Shown piece after piece: positions 2,990 to 18,738 of a stretch of 32,000 bases of DNA. The first letter of the stretch is position 1, and each line of letters starts with the position of its first letter. Made by a program: the position numbers and the translations under genes. Source of the DNA: Planctomycetales bacterium (GTDB lineage Bacteria > 4484-113 > JAFGCY01); NCBI GenBank assembly GCA_022646745.1, contig CP060262.1:3870001-3902000 (forward strand). Direction: 5' to 3'. The notes below the pieces were generated by a model. The model was not told where the DNA came from. It saw nothing but the letters and a program-made list of their open reading frames with translations, and did no database searches.

Positions 2990-3101
2990 GAGAATATCTA
3001 CGGCGGCGGTTTGCCGCCGTTTTCGTTTTCTGGGATAATCGCGTTTCTATCCAGGCTGCCGGGATAGGTATAAGGAATCCGGCACCGATGTGGAGATGAT
3101 G

Positions 3102-4004
3102 ATGAGAATTGCAATCCTGACACTGATCATGCTGCTTGCCGCCATCCCGGCGCAGGCCTACACCCCGAACGTCGGCGACCGAGCAAATGACATCAGCGGC
3201 CGCGACGTGGTGAACGGGGGCGTGGCCCAGCTGTCCGACTACCTCGGCAAGTGGGTGTTCCTCGATTTCTGGGCCGGCTGGTGCGGGCCCTGCGTCGGTG
3301 AGATGCCGAACATGGTGCGTGAAACCAGCCGCGTGAAGGAGCAGTTTGGCAACTTCCAGGTGTTCGGTGTCAGCCTCGATGCCGACAGCACCACCAACCT
3401 GCTGCACAAGTACATCAAGGAAAACAACGTCGACTACCCGGTGACCTACGATGGCAACGGCTGGTCCACCGTGCAGAGCGTGGAGTGGGACATCCACTCC
3501 ATCCCGGCCACCTTCCTGATCAACCCGCAGGGTGTGATCGTCGCCACCAACCTGCGGGGCGAGGCGCTCGGGCCGGCACTCGACTTCTTCGTCGGCTATG
3601 AAGGCACCTACGCCCCGATCGGCCTGAGCAGCAGCTCGGCAGCCAACGATGACGGCAGCGTCAGCCTGAACGTGGAGCTGTTCAGCCCGGACCACCAGCC
3701 GATGCAGCTTGAGGTGGACTACTACCACGTCAAGTACGAGTACACCGAGACTGAATCCGGCGAGCGCAAGCGCAGCGGCAGCGAGTTCATCGAGCCGGAC
3801 GAGGAGAATTCAGAGTTCAGCGAGACCGTCACGTTCGGCGACTTCGGTGACAGGAGCATGAGCTTCACCATTCCCGCAGTGGAGGGTGCCGAGCTCGTGG
3901 GCTACAGCATCCGCGTGAAGCTGCCCGGCACTGATTCCCTCAACGACGGCGAAGGCCTGTGGGTCAGTGACAGCGGCCGTGTACGCATGGAACTTGATAA
4001 GTAA
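3102..4004 (+). CDS. Exported TlpA/ResA-like thiol:disulfide oxidoreductase (CGPC active site) with a C-terminal ~130-aa domain of unknown function
   Basis: ORF track 3090..4004. The start is probably ATG 3102 (MRIAILTLIMLLAAIPAQA, signal peptide). GKWVFLDFWAGWCGPCVGEMP is the thioredoxin-fold CxxC motif. HSIPATFLINPQG contains the cis-Pro loop. The C-terminal extension is shared with the three paralogs below. Confidence 0.85.
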   Translation: MRIAILTLIMLLAAIPAQAYTPNVGDRANDISGRDVVNGGVAQLSDYLGKWVFLDFWAGWCGPCVGEMPNMVRETSRVKEQFGNFQVFGVSLDADSTTNLLHKYIKENNVDYPVTYDGNGWSTVQSVEWDIHSIPATFLINPQGVIVATNLRGEALGPALDFFVGYEGTYAPIGLSSSSAANDDGSVSLNVELFSPDHQPMQLEVDYYHVKYEYTETESGERKRSGSEFIEPDEENSEFSETVTFGDFGDRSMSFTIPAVEGAELVGYSIRVKLPGTDSLNDGEGLWVSDSGRVRMELDK

Positions 4005-4043
4005 TCCAGAAACAGAATCAGAAGCAGAAACAGGAGTAATGCT

Positions 4044-4946
4044 ATGAGGAACAAGATCCTGGCAATCGCGGCACTGGCAGCCATGCTGCTTCCCGCCGCG
4101 GCACATGCCCAGTTCGAGGCCAAGGCCGGCAACCGTGCACCGGAGCTGTTCGGCACGGATGCGGTGACCGGCGACTGGGTGGACATGGCCGACTTCAACG
4201 GCAAGTGGGTGCTGGCGGAGTTCTGGGCCACCTGGTGAGGACCCTGCATGAGGCAGTTGCCTCAGGTCGTCTCCGGTACCCGCGAACTGATTGACAACGG
4301 CAGGCTGGGGATGATCACCGCCAGCTACGACCGTGACAAGCAGGCCCTGCTCAATGTTATCGATGAGCGGGACATCACCTACCCCGTGATCTGGCAGAAC
4401 CAGGACAGCAATCGTGGCAACACGGAGGACTGGAACATCCGCGGCATCCCGACCACGGTGCTGATCAATCCGCAGGGCACCATCGTGGCTGACCTGCGCG
4501 CCGGTGAGGATTTCCAGCAGGTGCTGGAGTACTTCATCGAGCATGGCGAGGATCTCGGAGTGGTTGACATCAGCGGCAATGCCGTGACCCAGGATGACGG
4601 TTCCGTGAAGGTTGACCTCGAGATGTACTCCAGCCTGCACCGCGCTCTCGACGTGAAGGTCGAGGCCTACCGCGTGGTCTACAAGTGGGACGAGGAGAAT
4701 GACCCGAACCACGAAGGCCGCCCGCTGGACCGTGAATACATCGACCTGGCGGAGGAAGGGCATGACTTCTCCTTCACGCAGGACTTCAAGTGGTTCGCTG
4801 ATGCGGAGCACAGCTTCGTGATTGACAACATCGGAGAGGCTGACGCGGTTTACGTGATGGCCAGTGTGACCTACCCCGGCAGCGAGCACCTCAATGATGG
4901 TGAAGGTGTCGGCGTGTCCTTTGGTCGCAATGTGCCGCTGCCCTAG
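4044..4946 (+). CDS. Exported TlpA-like thiol:disulfide oxidoreductase, predicted selenoprotein (UGPC; in-frame TGA at 4236..4238)
   Basis: Track ORFs 4044..4238 and 4248..4946 are in the same frame. Read-through gives GKWVLAEFWATW-U-GPCMRQLP, with the TGA aligned to the first Cys of WCGPC in 3102..4004. The fold continues downstream with RGIPTTVLINPQG. GGAG lies 7 nt upstream of ATG 4044, and the N-terminus is a signal peptide (MRNKILAIAALAAMLLPAAAHA). Confidence 0.8.
4236..4264 (+). promoter_or_regulatory. Putative bacterial SECIS: UGA + 10 nt + hairpin UGAGG-CAGUUG-CCUCA
   Basis: The stem is 4249..4253 paired with 4260..4264, and the loop CAGUUG is 4254..4259. The same architecture with compensatory stem changes occurs at the other two TGA sites. 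Confidence 0.6.
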
Positions 4947-4973
4947 GGCAGAAATTGGAATCCGGATTGCAAT

Positions 4974-5002
4974 GGGGAGTCCTGCGGGGCTCCCCTTTTT
5001 TT
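4974..5002 (+). terminator. Rho-independent terminator after 4044..4946
   Basis: GGGGAGtcctgcggggCTCCCC is followed by TTTTTTT. Confidence 0.7.
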
Positions 5003-5099
5003 AGCAATGAGCAATGAAGAGTGAGCAATGAGCGTGAATGGCTGCGAGGTGAGCTCCGCCTGAATTTGACTCATTGCTCCTCACTCATTCTTCATTGCT
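5003..5099. repeat. Imperfect 30-nt inverted repeat built from AGCAATG-type heptamers / GAGCAATGAG blocks
   Basis: The left arm 5003..5032 is agcaatgagcaatgaagagtgagcaatgag. The right arm 5070..5099 reverse-complements to agcaatgaagaatgagtgaggagcaatgag. I count 23/30 identical, with perfect 8- and 10-nt ends and a 37-nt spacer. Confidence 0.6.
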
Positions 5100-5235
5100 T
5101 CAATGTTAATTTATTTGACTGATTTTCCCTGGAAAGGATAATACCTAACATCAAGCGCTTGATGTGGTGCGCTGCCTGGCAACAGGCATCGCAGGCCGGA
5201 TGGACTACGACGCCCGGCCGGGGATTCCCAGTCCC

Positions 5236-5317
5236 GGAGGCACTGCGAAGCTGTGCCATTGGAGCTGCGGCGCAAGCCGCACAACCGAGGCCAAGCTGTA
5301 AGCTTGGCTGGAAAGCG
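5236..5317 (+). repeat. Array A: three ~25-nt units of GGAGG/GGAG/GAGG followed by a hairpin, ending in GGAAAG
   Basis: GGAGG(5236)+GCACTGC-gaa-GCTGTGC. GGAG(5261)+TGCGGC-GCAA-GCCGCA (5266..5281). GAGG(5287)+CCAAGC-tgtaa-GCTTGG (5291..5307). Then GGAAAG at 5310..5315. Confidence 0.6.
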
Positions 5318-5412
5318 ATGAGCAATGACGAATGAGCAATGAGCCTGAGAAGAATCGGAGATGACTTCGACCTCCAGGACTCTCATTGCTCACTCTTTAC
5401 AACTCATTGCTC
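5318..5412. repeat. Second inverted repeat of GAGCAATGAG blocks
   Basis: atGAGCAATGAcgaatGAGCAATGAG (5318..5343) faces CTCATTGCTCactctttacaaCTCATTGCTC (5382..5412). The ~38-nt spacer itself contains GGAG...CTCC. Confidence 0.6.
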
Positions 5413-5415
5413 GAC

Positions 5416-5463
5416 GGAGTGCCGGAATTCCGGCATGGCCATGTGGCCTTCGGGCCACACTCC
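5416..5463 (+). other. Compact predicted three-way-junction structure (RNA or ssDNA)
   Basis: The closing stem is GGAGT (5416..5420) paired with ACTCC (5459..5463). Arm 1 is the 14-nt palindrome GCCGGAATTCCGGC (5421..5434). The linker is ATGGCCAT. Arm 2 is GTGGCC-TTCG-GGCCAC (5443..5458), which has a UUCG tetraloop. Confidence 0.45.
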
Positions 5464-5473
5464 GGATTTCTTT

Positions 5474-5587
5474 GGAGGTCTGGCGCAAGCCAGGCTCGGA
5501 GGTCGAGCGCAAGCTCGGCGCGGAGGCCTGACGCAAGCCAGGCTCGGAGGCCAGGTGCAAACCTGGCAGGAAAGTAATGAGCAATGA
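5474..5587 (+). repeat. Array B: four exactly 24-nt phased units of GGAGG + GCAA-tetraloop hairpin, then GGAAAG-TA-ATGAGCAATGA
   Basis: GGAGG starts at 5474, 5498, 5522 and 5546. The hairpins are CTGGC-GCAA-GCCAG, CGAGC-GCAA-GCTCG, CCTGAC-GCAA-GCCAGG (one A/C mismatch) and CCAGGT-GCAA-ACCTGG. GGAAAG is at 5569..5574 and ATGAGCAATGA at 5577..5587. Confidence 0.7.
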
Positions 5588-5747
5588 TCCTCGGGGGACA
5601 CATAAGTAAACACTGAAACATGCTGGCTGGACCGGACAGTGAATCGGGTCTGCCAGTGCCGAAGCTGCATTTAGCCCATCCCTGAACAACATTTCCCGCC
5701 CCGAAGCAGGCCACTGTCCGCTGCGTCAAACAATGCTGCCGGTACAT

Positions 5748-5792
5748 CCTGACTGGCGTCAGGCCCCCTCGCCTGGCTTGTGCCAGACCTCC
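5748..5792 (-). repeat. Array D: two units of the same family on the opposite strand
   Basis: The minus strand reads GGAGGT-CTGGC-ACAA-GCCAG-G-CGAGGGGG-CCTGAC-GCCA-GTCAGG. Confidence 0.5.
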
Positions 5793-5923
5793 ATTTCTTC
5801 GATATTTCGAAATTTCTGAAGTTTTATGTTTATAAATCCCCATGGCGGGGAATTACAAGTGGTTTCGAAAGGAGCAGGAACTTCTGAGAAGCCCCAACAA
5901 CAATATTCTCAGAGGTGAATGTC

Positions 5924-6529
5924 ATGAAAGTCAACGGAATCATCGCTCGTATCGCAGCAGTCGCAGTTCTCTCCATCAGCGCCCTCGTCGCATCCTGCGG
6001 TGGTGGCTCAGTCGCCAGTGACATGGATGCCCAGCTTGACCAGACCAGCCAGGCCAGCAACATCATTGACGAGATCAGCGTGGCGGACGACATCAACGCC
6101 CAGGCTGATATCGACAAGGGCACCAGCGGCTACGACGGCTACTGGGTTGAAAGCGCAGACGCCGCCTATGTGGACGGCCTCGACATCCTCTTCCAGTTCA
6201 AGAAGAACGGCATGGGCCAGTACAAGTTCGTGATCAACATCACCAACAACTCTTCCCATTCCCGCATCGTCGACTTCAAGGACTTCAGCCTGAACTACGA
6301 CTACTTCGTCTACCAGAACGGCGTGAAGAAGTGGCAGGCCAGCCAGGACAGCTTCTGCCTCGTGATCGAGCCGGACTTCTACCTGCCGCCCTACCAGACC
6401 AAGTCCTACGAAGTCCCCTGGGATGGCAAGGACCTCTCCAACCACGTGGTGAGCGGACTGGCCACCGTCAAGGGCAAGCTCTACCTCAACAGCGGTACGG
6501 TGCTCCTTGAAGGCCCCGCCTACATCTAA
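5924..6529 (+). CDS. Lipoprotein, possibly BsuPI-like (proteinase-inhibitor-type beta-sandwich)
   Basis: ORF track 5915..6529. I prefer ATG 5924 because GAGG lies 9 nt upstream. MKVNGIIARIAAVAVLSISALVASCGGG is a lipobox signal. The segment FSLNYDYFVYQNGVKKWQASQDSFCLVIEPDFYLPPYQTKSYEVPWDGKD resembles the BsuPI domain pattern, judged from memory only. Confidence 0.6.
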   Translation: MKVNGIIARIAAVAVLSISALVASCGGGSVASDMDAQLDQTSQASNIIDEISVADDINAQADIDKGTSGYDGYWVESADAAYVDGLDILFQFKKNGMGQYKFVINITNNSSHSRIVDFKDFSLNYDYFVYQNGVKKWQASQDSFCLVIEPDFYLPPYQTKSYEVPWDGKDLSNHVVSGLATVKGKLYLNSGTVLLEGPAYI

Positions 6530-6578: not shown

Positions 6579-6614
6579 CGGCCCGGAGCAATCCGGGCCG
6601 CTGTGCTTTCTTGC
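6579..6614 (+). terminator. Probable terminator hairpin with GCAA tetraloop
   Basis: CGGCCCGGA-GCAA-TCCGGGCCG (6579..6600) is followed by a moderately T-rich tail, ctgtgctttcttgc. Confidence 0.5.
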
Positions 6615-12043: not shown

Positions 12044-12967
12044 ATGACCCGTACCATTCTGGCAACATGCCTGCTGGCCATCCTGCTGGCAGGCAGCCCC
12101 GCGCTGGCATTTGAACCGCTAAGCGGCACACGCGCCTACCCGATCAGTGGCACCGACATCGTCAGCGGCCAGCATGTGGACCTCGACCAGTACCTCGGCA
12201 AGTGGGTGCTGCTCGAGTTCTGGGCCACCTGGTGAGGACCCTGCGTCGGGCAGTTGCCCGAAGTGCAGGCATTGCATGAGCAGTTCGCGGGTCGCGATGA
12301 CTTTGCGCTCTTGTCAGTGAGTGGCGACTACCCCGACAGCATGGACGAACTGCGTCCGATGATTGAGGAATACGGCATCACCTACCCCGTGCTGCATGGC
12401 CTGGATGGCGATGAGCCTGACCTGCACGACTGGGATATTCTCGGATTTCCATCGGCCTTCCTGATCAATCCACAGGGCGTGGTCCTGCTGGAGACGCATA
12501 TCGGTGAGTACACAGCGGGCTGGCTGGAAACACTGCTCAACCTCGAGCAGGAGATTCCCGTGACCCAGCTTTCCGTGGACAATGAGCTGCTGGACAATGG
12601 CGGGCTGCGCTTCACTGTGCGTTCCGACAGGCAGCTGGATGTGCATGTCAATGTCGGCAAGATCCTCGAGGAGTACTGGGAAGATGTTGACGGAGAATGG
12701 CAGGAAGTGGAGAATCCTCCTGCCGACGCAGAGCCCAACATGAGTGCCTACCATTCACTTGACGACTGGGAGAACAGGATTGTCAGCCTTGAGCCGCTGG
12801 ATGGATCATTCGTCTACAGCTTTGAGATTGAGCCAGTTACGGACGACAACCTGTGGTTGATCCAGTGCAGTGTTTCAGCGCAGATCCCCGGAACCGAGGA
12901 GCTTGAAGCAATGCTTCCGATGCTGATGGCGGGAAGCGAATGGTTCAAGCCGGAATCGGATTCTTAG
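12044..12967 (+). CDS. Exported TlpA-like thiol:disulfide oxidoreductase, predicted selenoprotein (UGPC; TGA at 12233..12235)
   Basis: Track ORFs 12044..12235 and 12254..12967 share one frame. Read-through gives GKWVLLEFWATW-U-GPCVGQLP. AGGGAG lies upstream of the ATG, and the signal peptide is MTRTILATCLLAILLAGSPALA. The cis-Pro loop is LGFPSAFLINPQG. Confidence 0.8.
12233..12261 (+). promoter_or_regulatory. Putative SECIS hairpin UCGGG-CAGUUG-CCCGA
   Basis: The stem is 12246..12250 paired with 12257..12261, and the loop is 12251..12256. The second base pair is C-G here, versus G-C at 4250/4263. Confidence 0.55.
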
Positions 12968-16982: not shown

Positions 16983-17233
16983 GCGGAGGGGAAGCGGAGT
17001 GTAGCTCTATGAGCTGCAGGGACTTGTCGGTCTTAAAACCGACATTCCGGAAAATGGCAAGCGTGAAAATCTTCTCTGTCTCTCAGAATCTCAGTGGCAA
17101 ATGCACGGATCTGTTGCCACTGAGCCACGGAGTCACTGAGAATACAAAAGAGTCAATCCATAATGAAGCTGTAGCGGTGCGCCCCTGGCGTAATTGAGAG
17201 TGGATGTTGTGAAGTGAGCATGGCACTTGTGAA

Positions 17234-17285
17234 GTAGGGCGGCGGTAATACCGCCGCCTGGGATGGGGTTTTACCCCATCCCTAC
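17234..17285. repeat. GTAG-headed double hairpin closed by GTAGGG/CCCTAC
   Basis: GTAGG-GCGGCGGT-aat-ACCGCCGC-c-tg-GGATGGGG-tttta-CCCCATCC-CTAC. It has the same GTAGGGC head as the hairpins flanking the RAYT gene. Confidence 0.5.
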
Positions 17286-17343
17286 GTCATGTGTTTGGCA
17301 AGATGGACAGGCTGCATCCTGCTTCGCGGGATGCAGCACCCCT

Positions 17344-17494
17344 GGTCAGTCCTGCCTCCGGCGGGACTGACCTCCGCTTCCAATTGTCAGCTTTACAGCT
17401 GACCTCCGTCACTCATCCAAACTCCGCACTCCAACCGCCAAACTCATTGTCAGCTTTACAGCTGACCTCCGCGCCAGGCTTGCGCCAGATCTCC
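17344..17494 (-). repeat. Array C: GGAGG + hairpin units (GTAA/GCAA loops) starting at the hflX stop codon
   Basis: The minus strand reads TAGGAGAT-CTGGCGCAAGCCTGGCG-C-GGAGG-TCAGCT-GTAA-AGCTGA-...-GGAGG-TCAGCT-GTAA-AGCTGA-...-GGAGG-TCAGTCC-loop-GGACTGA. The plus-strand segment attgtcagctttacagctgacctccg occurs twice exactly (17383..17408 and 17446..17471). Confidence 0.6.
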
Positions 17495-18738
17495 TAGTCG
17501 TCCATGATGCGGGCCAGCTGTTCTTTTTCACTCAGTGGCATCACGGGCTCAGGCTGGCTGTCGCGGATGGCAACGAGGCGTGTGAGCAGGCCATCGATCC
17601 CCTCCCCCGTTGCAGCACTGATGAACAGCGCATCGGGGTAGCTGCTGCGCAGCAGCTCCAGTTCCTCCGGGTCGGCGAGGTCCAGCTTGTTGAACACCAG
17701 AAGTTCCGGCATGTTCTCAAGCCCGATCTGCCGAACGATCTGGCGCACCGCTTCGATCTGGTCCAGCACGCGCAGGTGTGAGGCATCGGCCAGGTGCAGG
17801 AGCAGGTGGCTGCCCGCCATTTCATCCAGCGTGGCGCGGAATGCGGTAACCAGCTCCTCCGGCAGGTCGGCAATGAAGCCGACGGTGTCCGTCAGCAGCA
17901 TGCGGCTGCCATCCGGCATGTACAGGGCACGCGCCGTCGGGTCCAGCGTGGCGAAGTACTTGTCCTCGCTCAGCACCCCGCCGCGGGTCAGGCGGTTGAG
18001 CAGGGTGCTCTTGCCGACGTTCGTGTAGCCAACGATGCTGGCGGTGAACACGCCGGAGCGCACACGCTGCTGGCGGCGCAGTTCACGCTGGCCGCGCAGC
18101 TTGTCGAGGCGCTTCTCGATCTGCACGATGCGCTTGCGGTGCTGGTCCTTGACGCGGCGGGTCAGCTGTTCACCGGGGCCGATCGTTGAGGTGCCACCGG
18201 CGCTGCCACCACCGATGCTGTCAAGCTTCTCGTAGCTGCGCATCACGCGCGGCAGCTCATACTTGAGCTGCGCCAGCTCGACCTGCAGCTTGCCGTCGGC
18301 GGTGACGGCGTTGTCCTCGAAGATCGCGAAGATCATGTCGTAGCGGTTGAGCACGACGAGCTTGCTGTCAACTTCCCAGTTGCGCTGGTGCACGGCTGAG
18401 ATCGGCGCGGAAATGGCAATCAGGTCCACCTCACTCGCCTTGGCGCGCTCCACCACCTGCTCCATCTGGCCGCTGCCGAGGTAGTAGCGGCTCTGGCGCT
18501 CCTTCAGGTTGATCTCCATCATGTCGGCGATCTCAAGCCCGGAGGCATTTGCCAGTTCGGTGAAGTCGCCGGTCTCGCTCTCGGCCAGCAGCTCACGGTC
18601 ATAGCGGCGCGCCAGCTCGTCAACGAGGCCTGAATTGTCAACCCTCCCGGGTTCGGCGGGGAATCGCGGCTGCCGTTCATGGACGACAACGAGCAGGGCC
18701 TTCAGTCCGCCCAGCTTTGCCTTGCGTGGATCACTCAA
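17494..18738 (-). CDS. hflX: GTPase HflX
   Basis: 414 aa. G1 is GYTNVGKSTLLNRLT, G3 is LLTDTVGFI and G4 is VFNKLD. An HflX-type N-terminal domain is also present. The start is TTG, 7 nt after the upstream stop. Confidence 0.9.
   Translation of the reverse strand: MSDPRKAKLGGLKALLVVVHERQPRFPAEPGRVDNSGLVDELARRYDRELLAESETGDFTELANASGLEIADMMEINLKERQSRYYLGSGQMEQVVERAKASEVDLIAISAPISAVHQRNWEVDSKLVVLNRYDMIFAIFEDNAVTADGKLQVELAQLKYELPRVMRSYEKLDSIGGGSAGGTSTIGPGEQLTRRVKDQHRKRIVQIEKRLDKLRGQRELRRQQRVRSGVFTASIVGYTNVGKSTLLNRLTRGGVLSEDKYFATLDPTARALYMPDGSRMLLTDTVGFIADLPEELVTAFRATLDEMAGSHLLLHLADASHLRVLDQIEAVRQIVRQIGLENMPELLVFNKLDLADPEELELLRSSYPDALFISAATGEGIDGLLTRLVAIRDSQPEPVMPLSEKEQLARIMDD

Follow-up and report, generated by a model that had tools for sequence, protein, structure and literature searches.

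Repetitive extragenic palindromic sequences (REPs) are short GC-rich stem-loops of 20-40 nt with an unpaired tag, GTAG or CGTC (Di Nocera et al. 2013, PMC3733652). They often lie less than 20 bp from the 3′ ends of open reading frames (ORFs), many of which take their TAG stop codon from the repeat, and are believed to work at the RNA level (PMC3733652). Known REPs mostly form dimers, joined head to head or tail to tail and only rarely head to tail. Here, we describe arrays of short hairpins with a GGAG tag in a 32,000-nt stretch of DNA from a Planctomycetales bacterium (contig CP060262.1, positions 3,870,001 to 3,902,000), which we call the window and number from its first letter. The window has a GC content of 60.7%, and its main array lies at 5474-5569. 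We found that the GGAG hairpin units are a family that recurs at several loci, not a one-off structured RNA gene. They are probably lineage-specific tagged extragenic stem-loop repeats, similar to REPs and bacterial interspersed mosaic elements (BIMEs), which would be transcribed into the 3′ ends of mRNAs.

The likeness to REPs and BIMEs is both structural and positional. Each unit, 24-27 nt long, is a short GC-rich stem-loop in which an unpaired tag precedes a stem of 7 bp and a loop of 4 nt, and several stem sub-types occur in one genome. In addition, the units are extragenic, lie between convergent or co-directional genes near the 3′ end of an ORF, and in some cases abut a TAG stop codon. 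They are also clustered and variable between strains, and may likewise be transcribed and act as RNA hairpins. However, their GYAA tetraloops are fixed, and they belong to an uncultured lineage. REPINs, in turn, consist of two inverted REPs that form a larger hairpin and are tied to a single-copy gene for a REP-associated tyrosine transposase, RAYT (Bertels & Rainey, PMC3116915, PMC3337134). Our units share with the REPIN-RAYT system the character of non-autonomous hairpin repeats that form evolving populations within a genome, are inherited vertically and are restricted to a lineage (PMC3116915, PMC3337134). However, they are direct tandem units, and the only possible inverted pair is that of 5474 with 5792.

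Two further kinds of repeat show partial likeness. Mycobacterial MIRUs, which Supply et al. are said to have described in 1997, are reportedly intergenic tandem repeats that are oriented with transcription, abut or overlap the upstream stop codon and vary in copy number between strains. They are also said to be 40-100 bp long, not simple hairpins, and to lie inside operons, where small ORFs serve translational coupling. If so, our arrays resemble MIRUs as co-oriented intergenic tandem repeats at an upstream stop codon with strain-variable copy number, and differ from them as hairpins of 24-27 nt that lie mostly at the ends of transcription units. Cyanobacterial short tandemly repeated repetitive (STRR) sequences are tandem heptanucleotide repeats in intergenic DNA. 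Similarly, the runs of AGCAATG, CAGAAAC and GGTTTCC type that flank our arrays are tandem heptamers, often in inverted pairs. However, the heptamer sequences and the phylum differ, and the heptamers here are coupled to the hairpins in the order array, GGAA(A)G, heptamers. MIRUs are mentioned in a review (PMC3184786).

Three other assignments do not fit. The units are contiguous, with linkers of 2-5 nt and no unique spacers, so they are not a CRISPR array. They are not a type III (ToxI-like) antitoxin array either, because the downstream gene 5915..6529 is BsuPI-like and not a ToxN-type endoribonuclease, and because other arrays sit behind hflX, pyk and aminotransferase genes. The lack of an Rfam match and the position of GGA outside the loops speak against membership in the Csr/Rsm family of RNAs. 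Rfam searches of the whole window at the gathering score, and of 4900-5950 at E ≤ 10, gave only chance matches of miRNA and small RNA (sRNA) type far below the thresholds, and none of them explains this region.

The hairpin units and their family

The main array and its end are as follows:

5474..5569, + strand: main array, four head-to-tail units of 24 nt, each with a GGAG tag, a 7-bp stem (G-YCNNNN / NNNNGG-C) and a GCAA loop
5569..5587, + strand: array end motif, GGAAAG, TA and ATGAGCAATGA, that is, a degenerate tag followed by copies of a heptamer repeat; its twin is at 5310-5328

GGAGG starts at 5474, 5498, 5522 and 5546, and 6 nt, GCAA and another 6 nt follow in each case. Tandem Repeats Finder (TRF) reported the same region (5474-5567) as a tandem repeat with a period of 24, 3.9 copies and a score of 104. 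These results bear out a preliminary description of this DNA, made from its letters alone, which had noticed the four starts and the GCAA-capped hairpins. That description had also given the stems as complementary and 5-6 bp long. Units 1, 2 and 4 are indeed perfectly paired (G-UCUGGC/GCCAGG-C, G-UCGAGC/GCUCGG-C and GCCAGGU/ACCUGGC), and their stems are in fact 7 bp long once the final G of GGAGG is counted together with the C that follows; however, unit 3 (5522-5545; CCTGAC/GCCAGG) contains a single A·C mismatch. For 5410-5600, the fold of the + strand keeps all four hairpins and has an energy of −95.8 kcal/mol (z −4.45), 16 kcal/mol better than that of the − strand (−79.8 kcal/mol, z −3.05). 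In the centroid fold of the + strand, the GGAG linkers are unpaired. The pattern GGAGG-N6-GCAA occurs four times in the window, always in the main array, against 0.54 expected, a count that is weak by itself as 1 of 100 shuffles reaches four. The case for the main array is carried by its exact 24-nt phasing and its complementarity.

Further units were found elsewhere in the window:

5236..5309, + strand: second array, three units, GGAGG-CACTGCGAAGCTGTGCC, GGAG-CTGCGGC-GCAA-GCCGCAC and GAGG-CCAAGCT-GTAA-GCTTGGC
5748..5794, − strand: inverted unit pair, GGAGG-TCTGGC-ACAA-GCCAGG-C and GGGGG-CCTGAC-GCCA-GTCAGG, 32.1 bits
17343..17496, − strand: hflX-locus array, starting on the hflX stop codon as TAG-GAG-ATCTGGC-GCAA-GCCTGGC
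17308..17342, − strand: recurring hairpin module, GGTGCTGCATCC-CGCGAAGC-AGGATGCAGCC, identical in the trx-locus of the sister strain

The hflX array continues with two GGAGG-TCAGCT-GTAA-AGCTGAC units and one GGAGG-TCAGTCC...GGACTGA unit, and is co-oriented with the GTPase gene hflX (17494..18738, − strand). The second array, which had been described as having the same layout as the main one, is real and composed of units, but looser, with varying tags (GGAGG, GGAG and GAGG), a period of about 25 nt and loops of GCGAAGC type, GCAA and GTAA. Both arrays share the endings reported for them, GGAAAG-CG-ATGAGCAATGA at 5310 and GGAAAG-TA-ATGAGCAATGA at 5569. The exact period of 24 nt and the invariant GGAGG hold for the main array only; elsewhere, the period is 24-27 nt and the tags include GGAG, GGGAGG, GGAAG and GGTGG. 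In addition, the inverted unit at 5771-5792 is identical to unit 1 (5474-5495) at 21 of 22 positions, so the two are complementary on one strand. They could pair over a long range and enclose about 275 nt, which is the sole REPIN-like configuration that we saw.

The family extends to loci of related genomes; the loci compared are labelled L001, L033, L042, L143, L187, L188, L192, L194, L196 and L197. A general unit can be written as NN-GGAG-[G-YC-NNNN]-GYAA-[NNNN-GR-C], in which the inner three or four base pairs define a limited set of unit types. For instance, the type GGAGGTCGAGCGCAAGCTCGGC is present in the window, L001, L033, L042 and L143, the type GGAGGTCTGGCGCAAGCCAGGC in the window, L042 and L194, and the type CCAAGCTGTAAGCTTGGC in the window, L001 and L033 (L192/L194 have a version of it whose loop is GTTA). 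Identical types are found at unrelated loci of different species, and a three-unit block of 70 nt is 94% identical between the window and L042 despite unrelated genomic contexts. The array period is 24 nt in the main array, L042 and L033, and 26-27 nt in L187. The unit thus recurs, as the preliminary description had suggested it might, at 17343-17496, at 5748-5794, in sister metagenome-assembled genomes (MAGs) and in a sister strain. That description had also noticed covarying stems. The compensatory differences are real (five of the seven pairs), but they are not the free drift of one RNA gene; the stem covariation reflects instead a limited library of recurring unit types that is reshuffled among loci.

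A covariance model of the unit, R1, was trained on 16 copies. Among these copies, 95.5% of the cells are paired, five of the seven stem pairs have changed on both sides, and no shuffle equals the observed covariation score. The paired fraction is 95.5-97.6% across the unit sets examined, values that are inflated for model-selected units because degenerate or chimeric units score low. With R1, 23 matches scored 30 bits or more in the window and close relatives (105.8 kb together), and at least 11 of them were not in the training set; in all, about 11 arrays and 23 strong units lie in 106 kb drawn from 5-6 genomes. In contrast, 769.5 kb from unrelated genomes, although chosen beforehand for containing the linear motif, yielded no match of 30 bits or more; the best scored 26.6. 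In the next-closest relatives (121 kb), nothing exceeded 18.2 bits. These relatives are species whose HflX is 79% identical or whose pyruvate kinase is 80-84% identical, and a clade at about 60% identity. In an unbiased scan, a GGAG-type tag was found at most 8 nt upstream of 21 of the 29 GYAA hairpins with at least five Watson-Crick pairs, against none of six GYAA hairpins in relatives without the family.

The pairing also shows a strand asymmetry. U·G occupies stem position 2 in units 1 and 2 of the main array and in 13 of 30 units overall, and T·G outnumbers C·A by 11 to 1 in the unbiased scan. Furthermore, a cUUCGg hairpin between the two window arrays keeps its pairing in the sister strain despite a C-to-T change, as a G·U pair that forms on the + strand only. 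These asymmetries indicate that one strand is the folded one.

The search for carriers gave a narrow range. A scan of 185,579 species genomes with the pattern GGAGG-N6-GCAA-N9-GGAGG-N6-GCAA returned at least 136 matches, so that the taxonomic range of the family is a lower bound. Among the matches listed, real hairpins occur only in JAGRNT010000007.1 and JAGRNR010000041.1 (titled UBP7 HKST-UBA03/01), and the others are chance or coding matches, mostly from Streptomyces. The family is also present in a JGI contig and in the sister strain. A metagenome scan with the exact unit GGAGGTCGAGCGCAAGCTCGG, which proved a poorly chosen pattern, found 51 loci, of which 50 are coding (EVERKLG, high-GC soil organisms) and one, L143, is a true relative. 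Viral contigs scanned with the same exact unit gave no match, and neither did exact look-ups with P0002 and P0121. The pyk-based loci L196 and L197 come from genomes without the family, and hence added no arrays to the count of orientations below. The carriers are apparently a small clade of uncultured activated-sludge bacteria of the candidate phylum UBP7.

Gene ends, turnover and competing explanations

Seven arrays lie at gene ends:

window hflX: junction TAGGAG
L187 hflX: junction TAGGAGG
L192/L194 hflX: junction TGA-C-GGAGG
L033 573-aa gene: junction TAGGAGG
L033 pyruvate kinase gene (pyk): array 8 nt after the stop codon
L143: units start about 14 nt after the stop codon
L187 aminotransferase gene: units start about 30 nt after the stop codon

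In six of the seven, the first unit lies 0-14 nt past the stop codon, and all seven are co-oriented with the gene upstream. Two convergent pairs, pyk with the 573-aa gene in L033 and hflX with the aminotransferase gene in L187, have one array for each gene, and the two arrays are opposed. This suggests that the folded strand is tied to transcription and not to replication. The antisense cases are the inverted units at 5748-5794 and the L042 array, whose two neighbouring ORFs both run the opposite way. On the strand of the L042 array, however, a 10/12 promoter match lies upstream of it, as is the case for the window arrays. Overall, the co-orientation with the upstream gene is suggestive but not conclusive.

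The arrays change faster than the genes around them. The sister strain has 98.4% DNA identity over the upstream gene, yet its second array has been swapped for other modules, two of which are found behind hflX in the window; conversely, the three unit types of the window's second array recur behind the sister strain's hflX in a different order. Unit 3 of the sister strain, GGTGG-CCCGGT-GCAA-ACCGGG, pairs perfectly, and its unit 4 has gained the 3′ half of another type, which breaks one pair. Between strains whose HflX proteins are 99% identical, the hflX arrays are wholly different and even the stop codons differ. At 79% HflX identity, L188 has no array after hflX, only a gap of 18 nt, and L187 has six or seven different units at this site. 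Short-read contigs of many samples end inside arrays. Six of seven stop at or just short of the hairpin 17308..17342, and window 4201-5920 is 100% identical to JAGRNS010000055.1 (MAG GCA_020440665.1; exact-protein look-up), a contig that ends there. A multi-copy repeat that recombines or moves behaves in this way; a conserved cis-regulator does not.

We propose the following explanation for these repeats. The module is an unpaired GGAG tag with a 7-bp GC-rich stem and a GYAA (GNRA) loop. Modules of a limited number of stem types are strung head-to-tail, mostly 0-30 nt past a stop codon and in the direction of the gene upstream, and are rapidly exchanged or replaced between loci and strains. 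Their position and orientation suggest that the arrays form the 3′ end of the mRNA made from the gene upstream; at the window locus and L042, they may be transcribed from their own promoter instead. The transcribed arrays would fold into rows of very stable hairpins, which may block 3′-to-5′ exonucleases and/or help to end transcription, a role long proposed for REPs, as in enterobacteria. The constant GGAG tag and GCAA loop may be what the spreading mechanism needs, whether this is a structure-specific enzyme or template switching at microhomologies of tag and loop. The tag need not be a ribosome- or protein-binding site. The chimeric units argue for template switching at microhomologies, or for gene conversion. 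A new interspersed repeat family and a REP/BIME-like element of the 3′ untranslated region had both been among the possibilities of the preliminary description; both fit, and they amount to one and the same thing.

Several points weigh against this explanation. First, transcription of the arrays is read from their position only, and gene 4248..4946 already has a canonical terminator at 4974..5000. The main and second arrays lie past it and thus are not simply the 3′ end of that gene. Second, the family has the structure and position that define REPs, but lacks two features of the REP super-families, the tag and the dimer layout: no GTAG or CGTC was seen in the units, the tag in those 21 of 29 hairpins being GGAG(G), and the units run head-to-tail at a pitch of 24-27 nt, with 5748-5794 as the sole inverted ones. 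Third, the tag equals a perfect Shine-Dalgarno (SD) sequence, which leaves room for a role in binding ribosomes or a protein. Fourth, a Pfam search of the window ORFs and the gene tables of related loci, which cover a small part of a genome, showed neither RAYT nor any other transposase. In addition, the sample of orientations is small (about nine sense against two antisense arrays), three of the roughly nine sense arrays represent one orthologous hflX site, and the pairing percentages are inflated as noted above.

The strongest rival, though we consider it unlikely, is that the units are purely selfish DNA: single-stranded DNA hairpins moved by an enzyme (RAYT/HUH-type or other) that reads GGAG plus hairpin, tolerated at gene ends and having no role as RNA. 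Much of the turnover would fit this. Modules are exchanged singly between loci and strains, assemblies break inside arrays, and the family is absent from close relatives. Furthermore, some units are chimeric, with apparent breaks in the conserved loop; unit 4 of L001 consists of the 5′ half of one type and the 3′ half of another, and unit 3 of the window looks similar. Y1 transposases are known to read a tag-plus-hairpin layout in GTAG REPs (PMC3733652, PMC3337134), and G·T pairs are tolerated in DNA hairpins too. However, each of the opposed arrays in the convergent pairs matches its own gene. This pattern is expected from a link to transcription, but not from a replication-strand bias of single-strand transposition. 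The GNRA and UUCG loops are stabilising loops of RNA type, and the inspected sequence, which amounts to a small part of a genome, revealed no transposase gene.

A rather improbable variant is that GGAG(G) itself functions as RNA, so that each unit would offer a perfect SD sequence clamped against a GNRA-capped hairpin. A row of such units, whether at the 3′ end of an mRNA or in promoter-driven transcripts of 5148-5590 and L042, would form a multivalent landing pad for the 30S ribosomal subunit or for a GGA-binding protein. Slightly more doubtful still is a stand-alone sRNA. In this case, the segment of about 440 nt at 5148-5590 and its counterpart in L042 would expose many single-stranded GGAG motifs between clamp hairpins and titrate 30S subunits (anti-SD CCUCC) or a CsrA-like GGA-binding protein. 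Promoter matches of 10/12 lie at 5115-5142 in the window and at 5334-5361 in L042, each just after a heptamer hairpin with a T run, and the context of the L042 promoter resembles that of a real gene in L143. These matches make stand-alone transcripts possible. Moreover, the GGAG linkers are free in the centroid fold, GGAGG serves as an SD sequence in this lineage (e.g., GGGAGGcagtcATG in L143), and 5148-5420 is very strongly structured (z −7.05). As in CsrB/RsmZ, many roughly regular GGA motifs lie in a structured non-coding segment, with a possible promoter of its own at two loci. However, known Csr/Rsm sponges carry most GGA motifs in hairpin loops, whereas here they lie in linkers with the last G paired, the loops are GCAA or GTAA, and no Rfam family matches, those of CsrB/RsmZ type included. 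Such units are the exception, since most arrays directly follow the stop codons of many genes, and the arrays lack conserved gene-like boundaries. Their content turns over at 98-99% protein identity, unlike that of a conserved regulator, and no + strand terminator was found downstream. The sponge for CsrA or anti-SD sequences that the preliminary description had proposed is therefore unsupported.

Coding of an octapeptide repeat (GGLAQARL...) by ORF 5339..5587, or of a C-terminal extension by TAG read-through, can practically be dismissed: although the 24-nt period is divisible by three, an 82-aa ORF spans the array and many high-GC soil bacteria use the 21-mer GGAGGTCGAGCGCAAGCTCGG to encode EVERKLG in ordinary coding sequence, the ORFs over the array region have no Pfam match (the 82-aa ORF even at E ≤ 1), periods of 25-27 nt at other loci break any frame, the read-through frames at three hflX-type sites give unrelated peptides, the implied peptides do not covary as the stems do, both strands carry units, and the frame relative to GGAGG varies between loci, which leaves coding unsupported. 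The frame differences and the pairing kept through compensatory changes agree with the earlier statements that the units are non-coding and that ORF 5339..5587 is just the repeat translated.

Other features of the region and of related loci

The main and second arrays are flanked by two + strand genes, with a gap of about 970 nt from one to the other. The first, 4248..4946, forms the downstream part of a thioredoxin-fold gene, and the second, 5915..6529, encodes a BsuPI-like secreted protein. Other features in and near this gap are:

4974..5000, + strand: intrinsic terminator with a 9-bp stem and a T run, which belongs to gene 4248..4946 and is outside the repeat family
5003..5105, no strand: twin heptamer inverted repeat, directly 3′ of the terminator of gene 4248..4946, with a homologous copy in L042
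5115..5142, + strand: predicted sigma-70-like promoter, TTGACT-16-GATAAT (10/12), 5′ of the structured segment
5314..5415, no strand: inverted repeat after the second array, AGCAATG/GAGCAATGA heptamers with 30-nt arms, 77% complementary
5416..5470, + strand: compound hairpins between the arrays, including GTGGCC-TTCG-GGCCAC with the cUUCGg-type tetraloop (5443-5458)
6579..6600, + strand: solitary untagged hairpin, CGGCCCGGA-GCAA-TCCGGGCCG, 50 nt 3′ of gene 5915..6529, 18.5 bits

The promoter-like site 5115-5142 is kept in the sister strain, and its analogue in L042, TTGACA-16-GACAAT, lies 5′ of the array there. The stem type of the solitary hairpin is that of a tagged unit in L033. Meanwhile, the 30-nt terminator hairpin GGGGAGTCCTGCGGGGCTCCCC with its T run (window 4973-5002) is 100% identical at an unrelated site, L188 4978-5007. 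L188 belongs to another species, which shares this hairpin though it is without the GGAG-hairpin family. The hairpin GGGGAGTCCTGCGGGGCTCCCC may be a separate conserved terminator or repeat family.

The heptamer GAGCAATGA occurs eight times in 5009-5587, against 0.44 expected in the whole window, and makes up the two 100-nt inverted repeats. The intergenic DNA of this lineage is rich in tandem heptamers (AGCAATG, CAGAAAC, CACTGAG, GTGGAAG/GTGGGGG, GGTTTCC/GGTTTCG and GTGAACC). They often form inverted pairs, which give hairpins of about 100 nt, and their usual place is directly 3′ of a hairpin array. A typical array ends in GGAA(A)G followed by the heptamers GAGCAATGA, GTGGAAGAAGTGGGG or GGTTTCC/GGTTTCG. 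Heptamer sites are:

window: 5003-5105, 5314-5415, 4007-4033 and 17072-17142
L033: 1710-1830
L192: 11297-11335

Rearrangements were also seen at related loci. In the sister strain, at L001 7607-7704, an unrelated inverted repeat of about 100 nt (GGCCACTGGGC...GCCCAGTGGCC) stands in for the AGCAATG repeat of window 5003-5105. This element sits between the terminator and the promoter-like element, and further copies of the motif lie downstream. In L194 (1555-2160, compared with window 16983-17493), the hflX array is followed by a 552-aa ORF and not by the aminotransferase gene, so a rearrangement break point coincides with the hflX array. The − strand of L042 3639-6387 carries a core ORF of arginyl-tRNA synthetase (511 aa), which begins just before HVGH and is without the N-terminal domain. 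An ORF of 135 aa (...GAYLNFYYD...FGGE) lies 800 nt upstream of this argS core, and the heptamer hairpin, the promoter-like site and the opposite-strand array lie between the two. This layout looks as if the repeats had split argS in L042, but the 135-aa ORF has no Pfam match, and its PDB match is marginal and unrelated (E 0.085).

Two thioredoxin-fold genes of TlpA type in the window are putative selenocysteine genes, at 4044-4946 (TGA at 4236-4238) and at about 12045-12967 (TGA at 12234-12236). In both, the in-frame TGA takes the position of the first Cys of WCGPC in the paralogue 3090..4004 (FWATW-TGA-GPC). About 10 nt 3′ of each TGA, there is a small hairpin with the common core GGCAGTTGCC, which looks like a selenocysteine insertion sequence (SECIS). 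These two genes probably encode selenocysteine (UxxC) proteins. Gene callers split them, in the window and in close relatives, into ORFs of 62-64 aa and 229-246 aa.

Meaning of the GGAG hairpin family

What is new here is modest: a GGAG tag and a head-to-tail layout in a REP-like repeat, and we do not claim a new kind of RNA gene. In practice, the arrays break short-read assemblies and yield spurious ORFs such as 5339..5587 and 5397..5843. Among REP-like repeats, GGAG would be a third type of tag beside the GTAG and CGTC super-families, with a head-to-tail architecture, in a lineage without a cultured member. If the GGAG motif did act as an RNA landing pad, it would mean that ribosomes or a protein protect 3′ ends, or are titrated globally, and the family would be a transcription-oriented, self-propagating RNA module and more than a REP look-alike. 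The co-orientation in convergent pairs, the abutment on stop codons and the shuffling between strains together offer a clean natural test between a role as RNA and mere tolerance.

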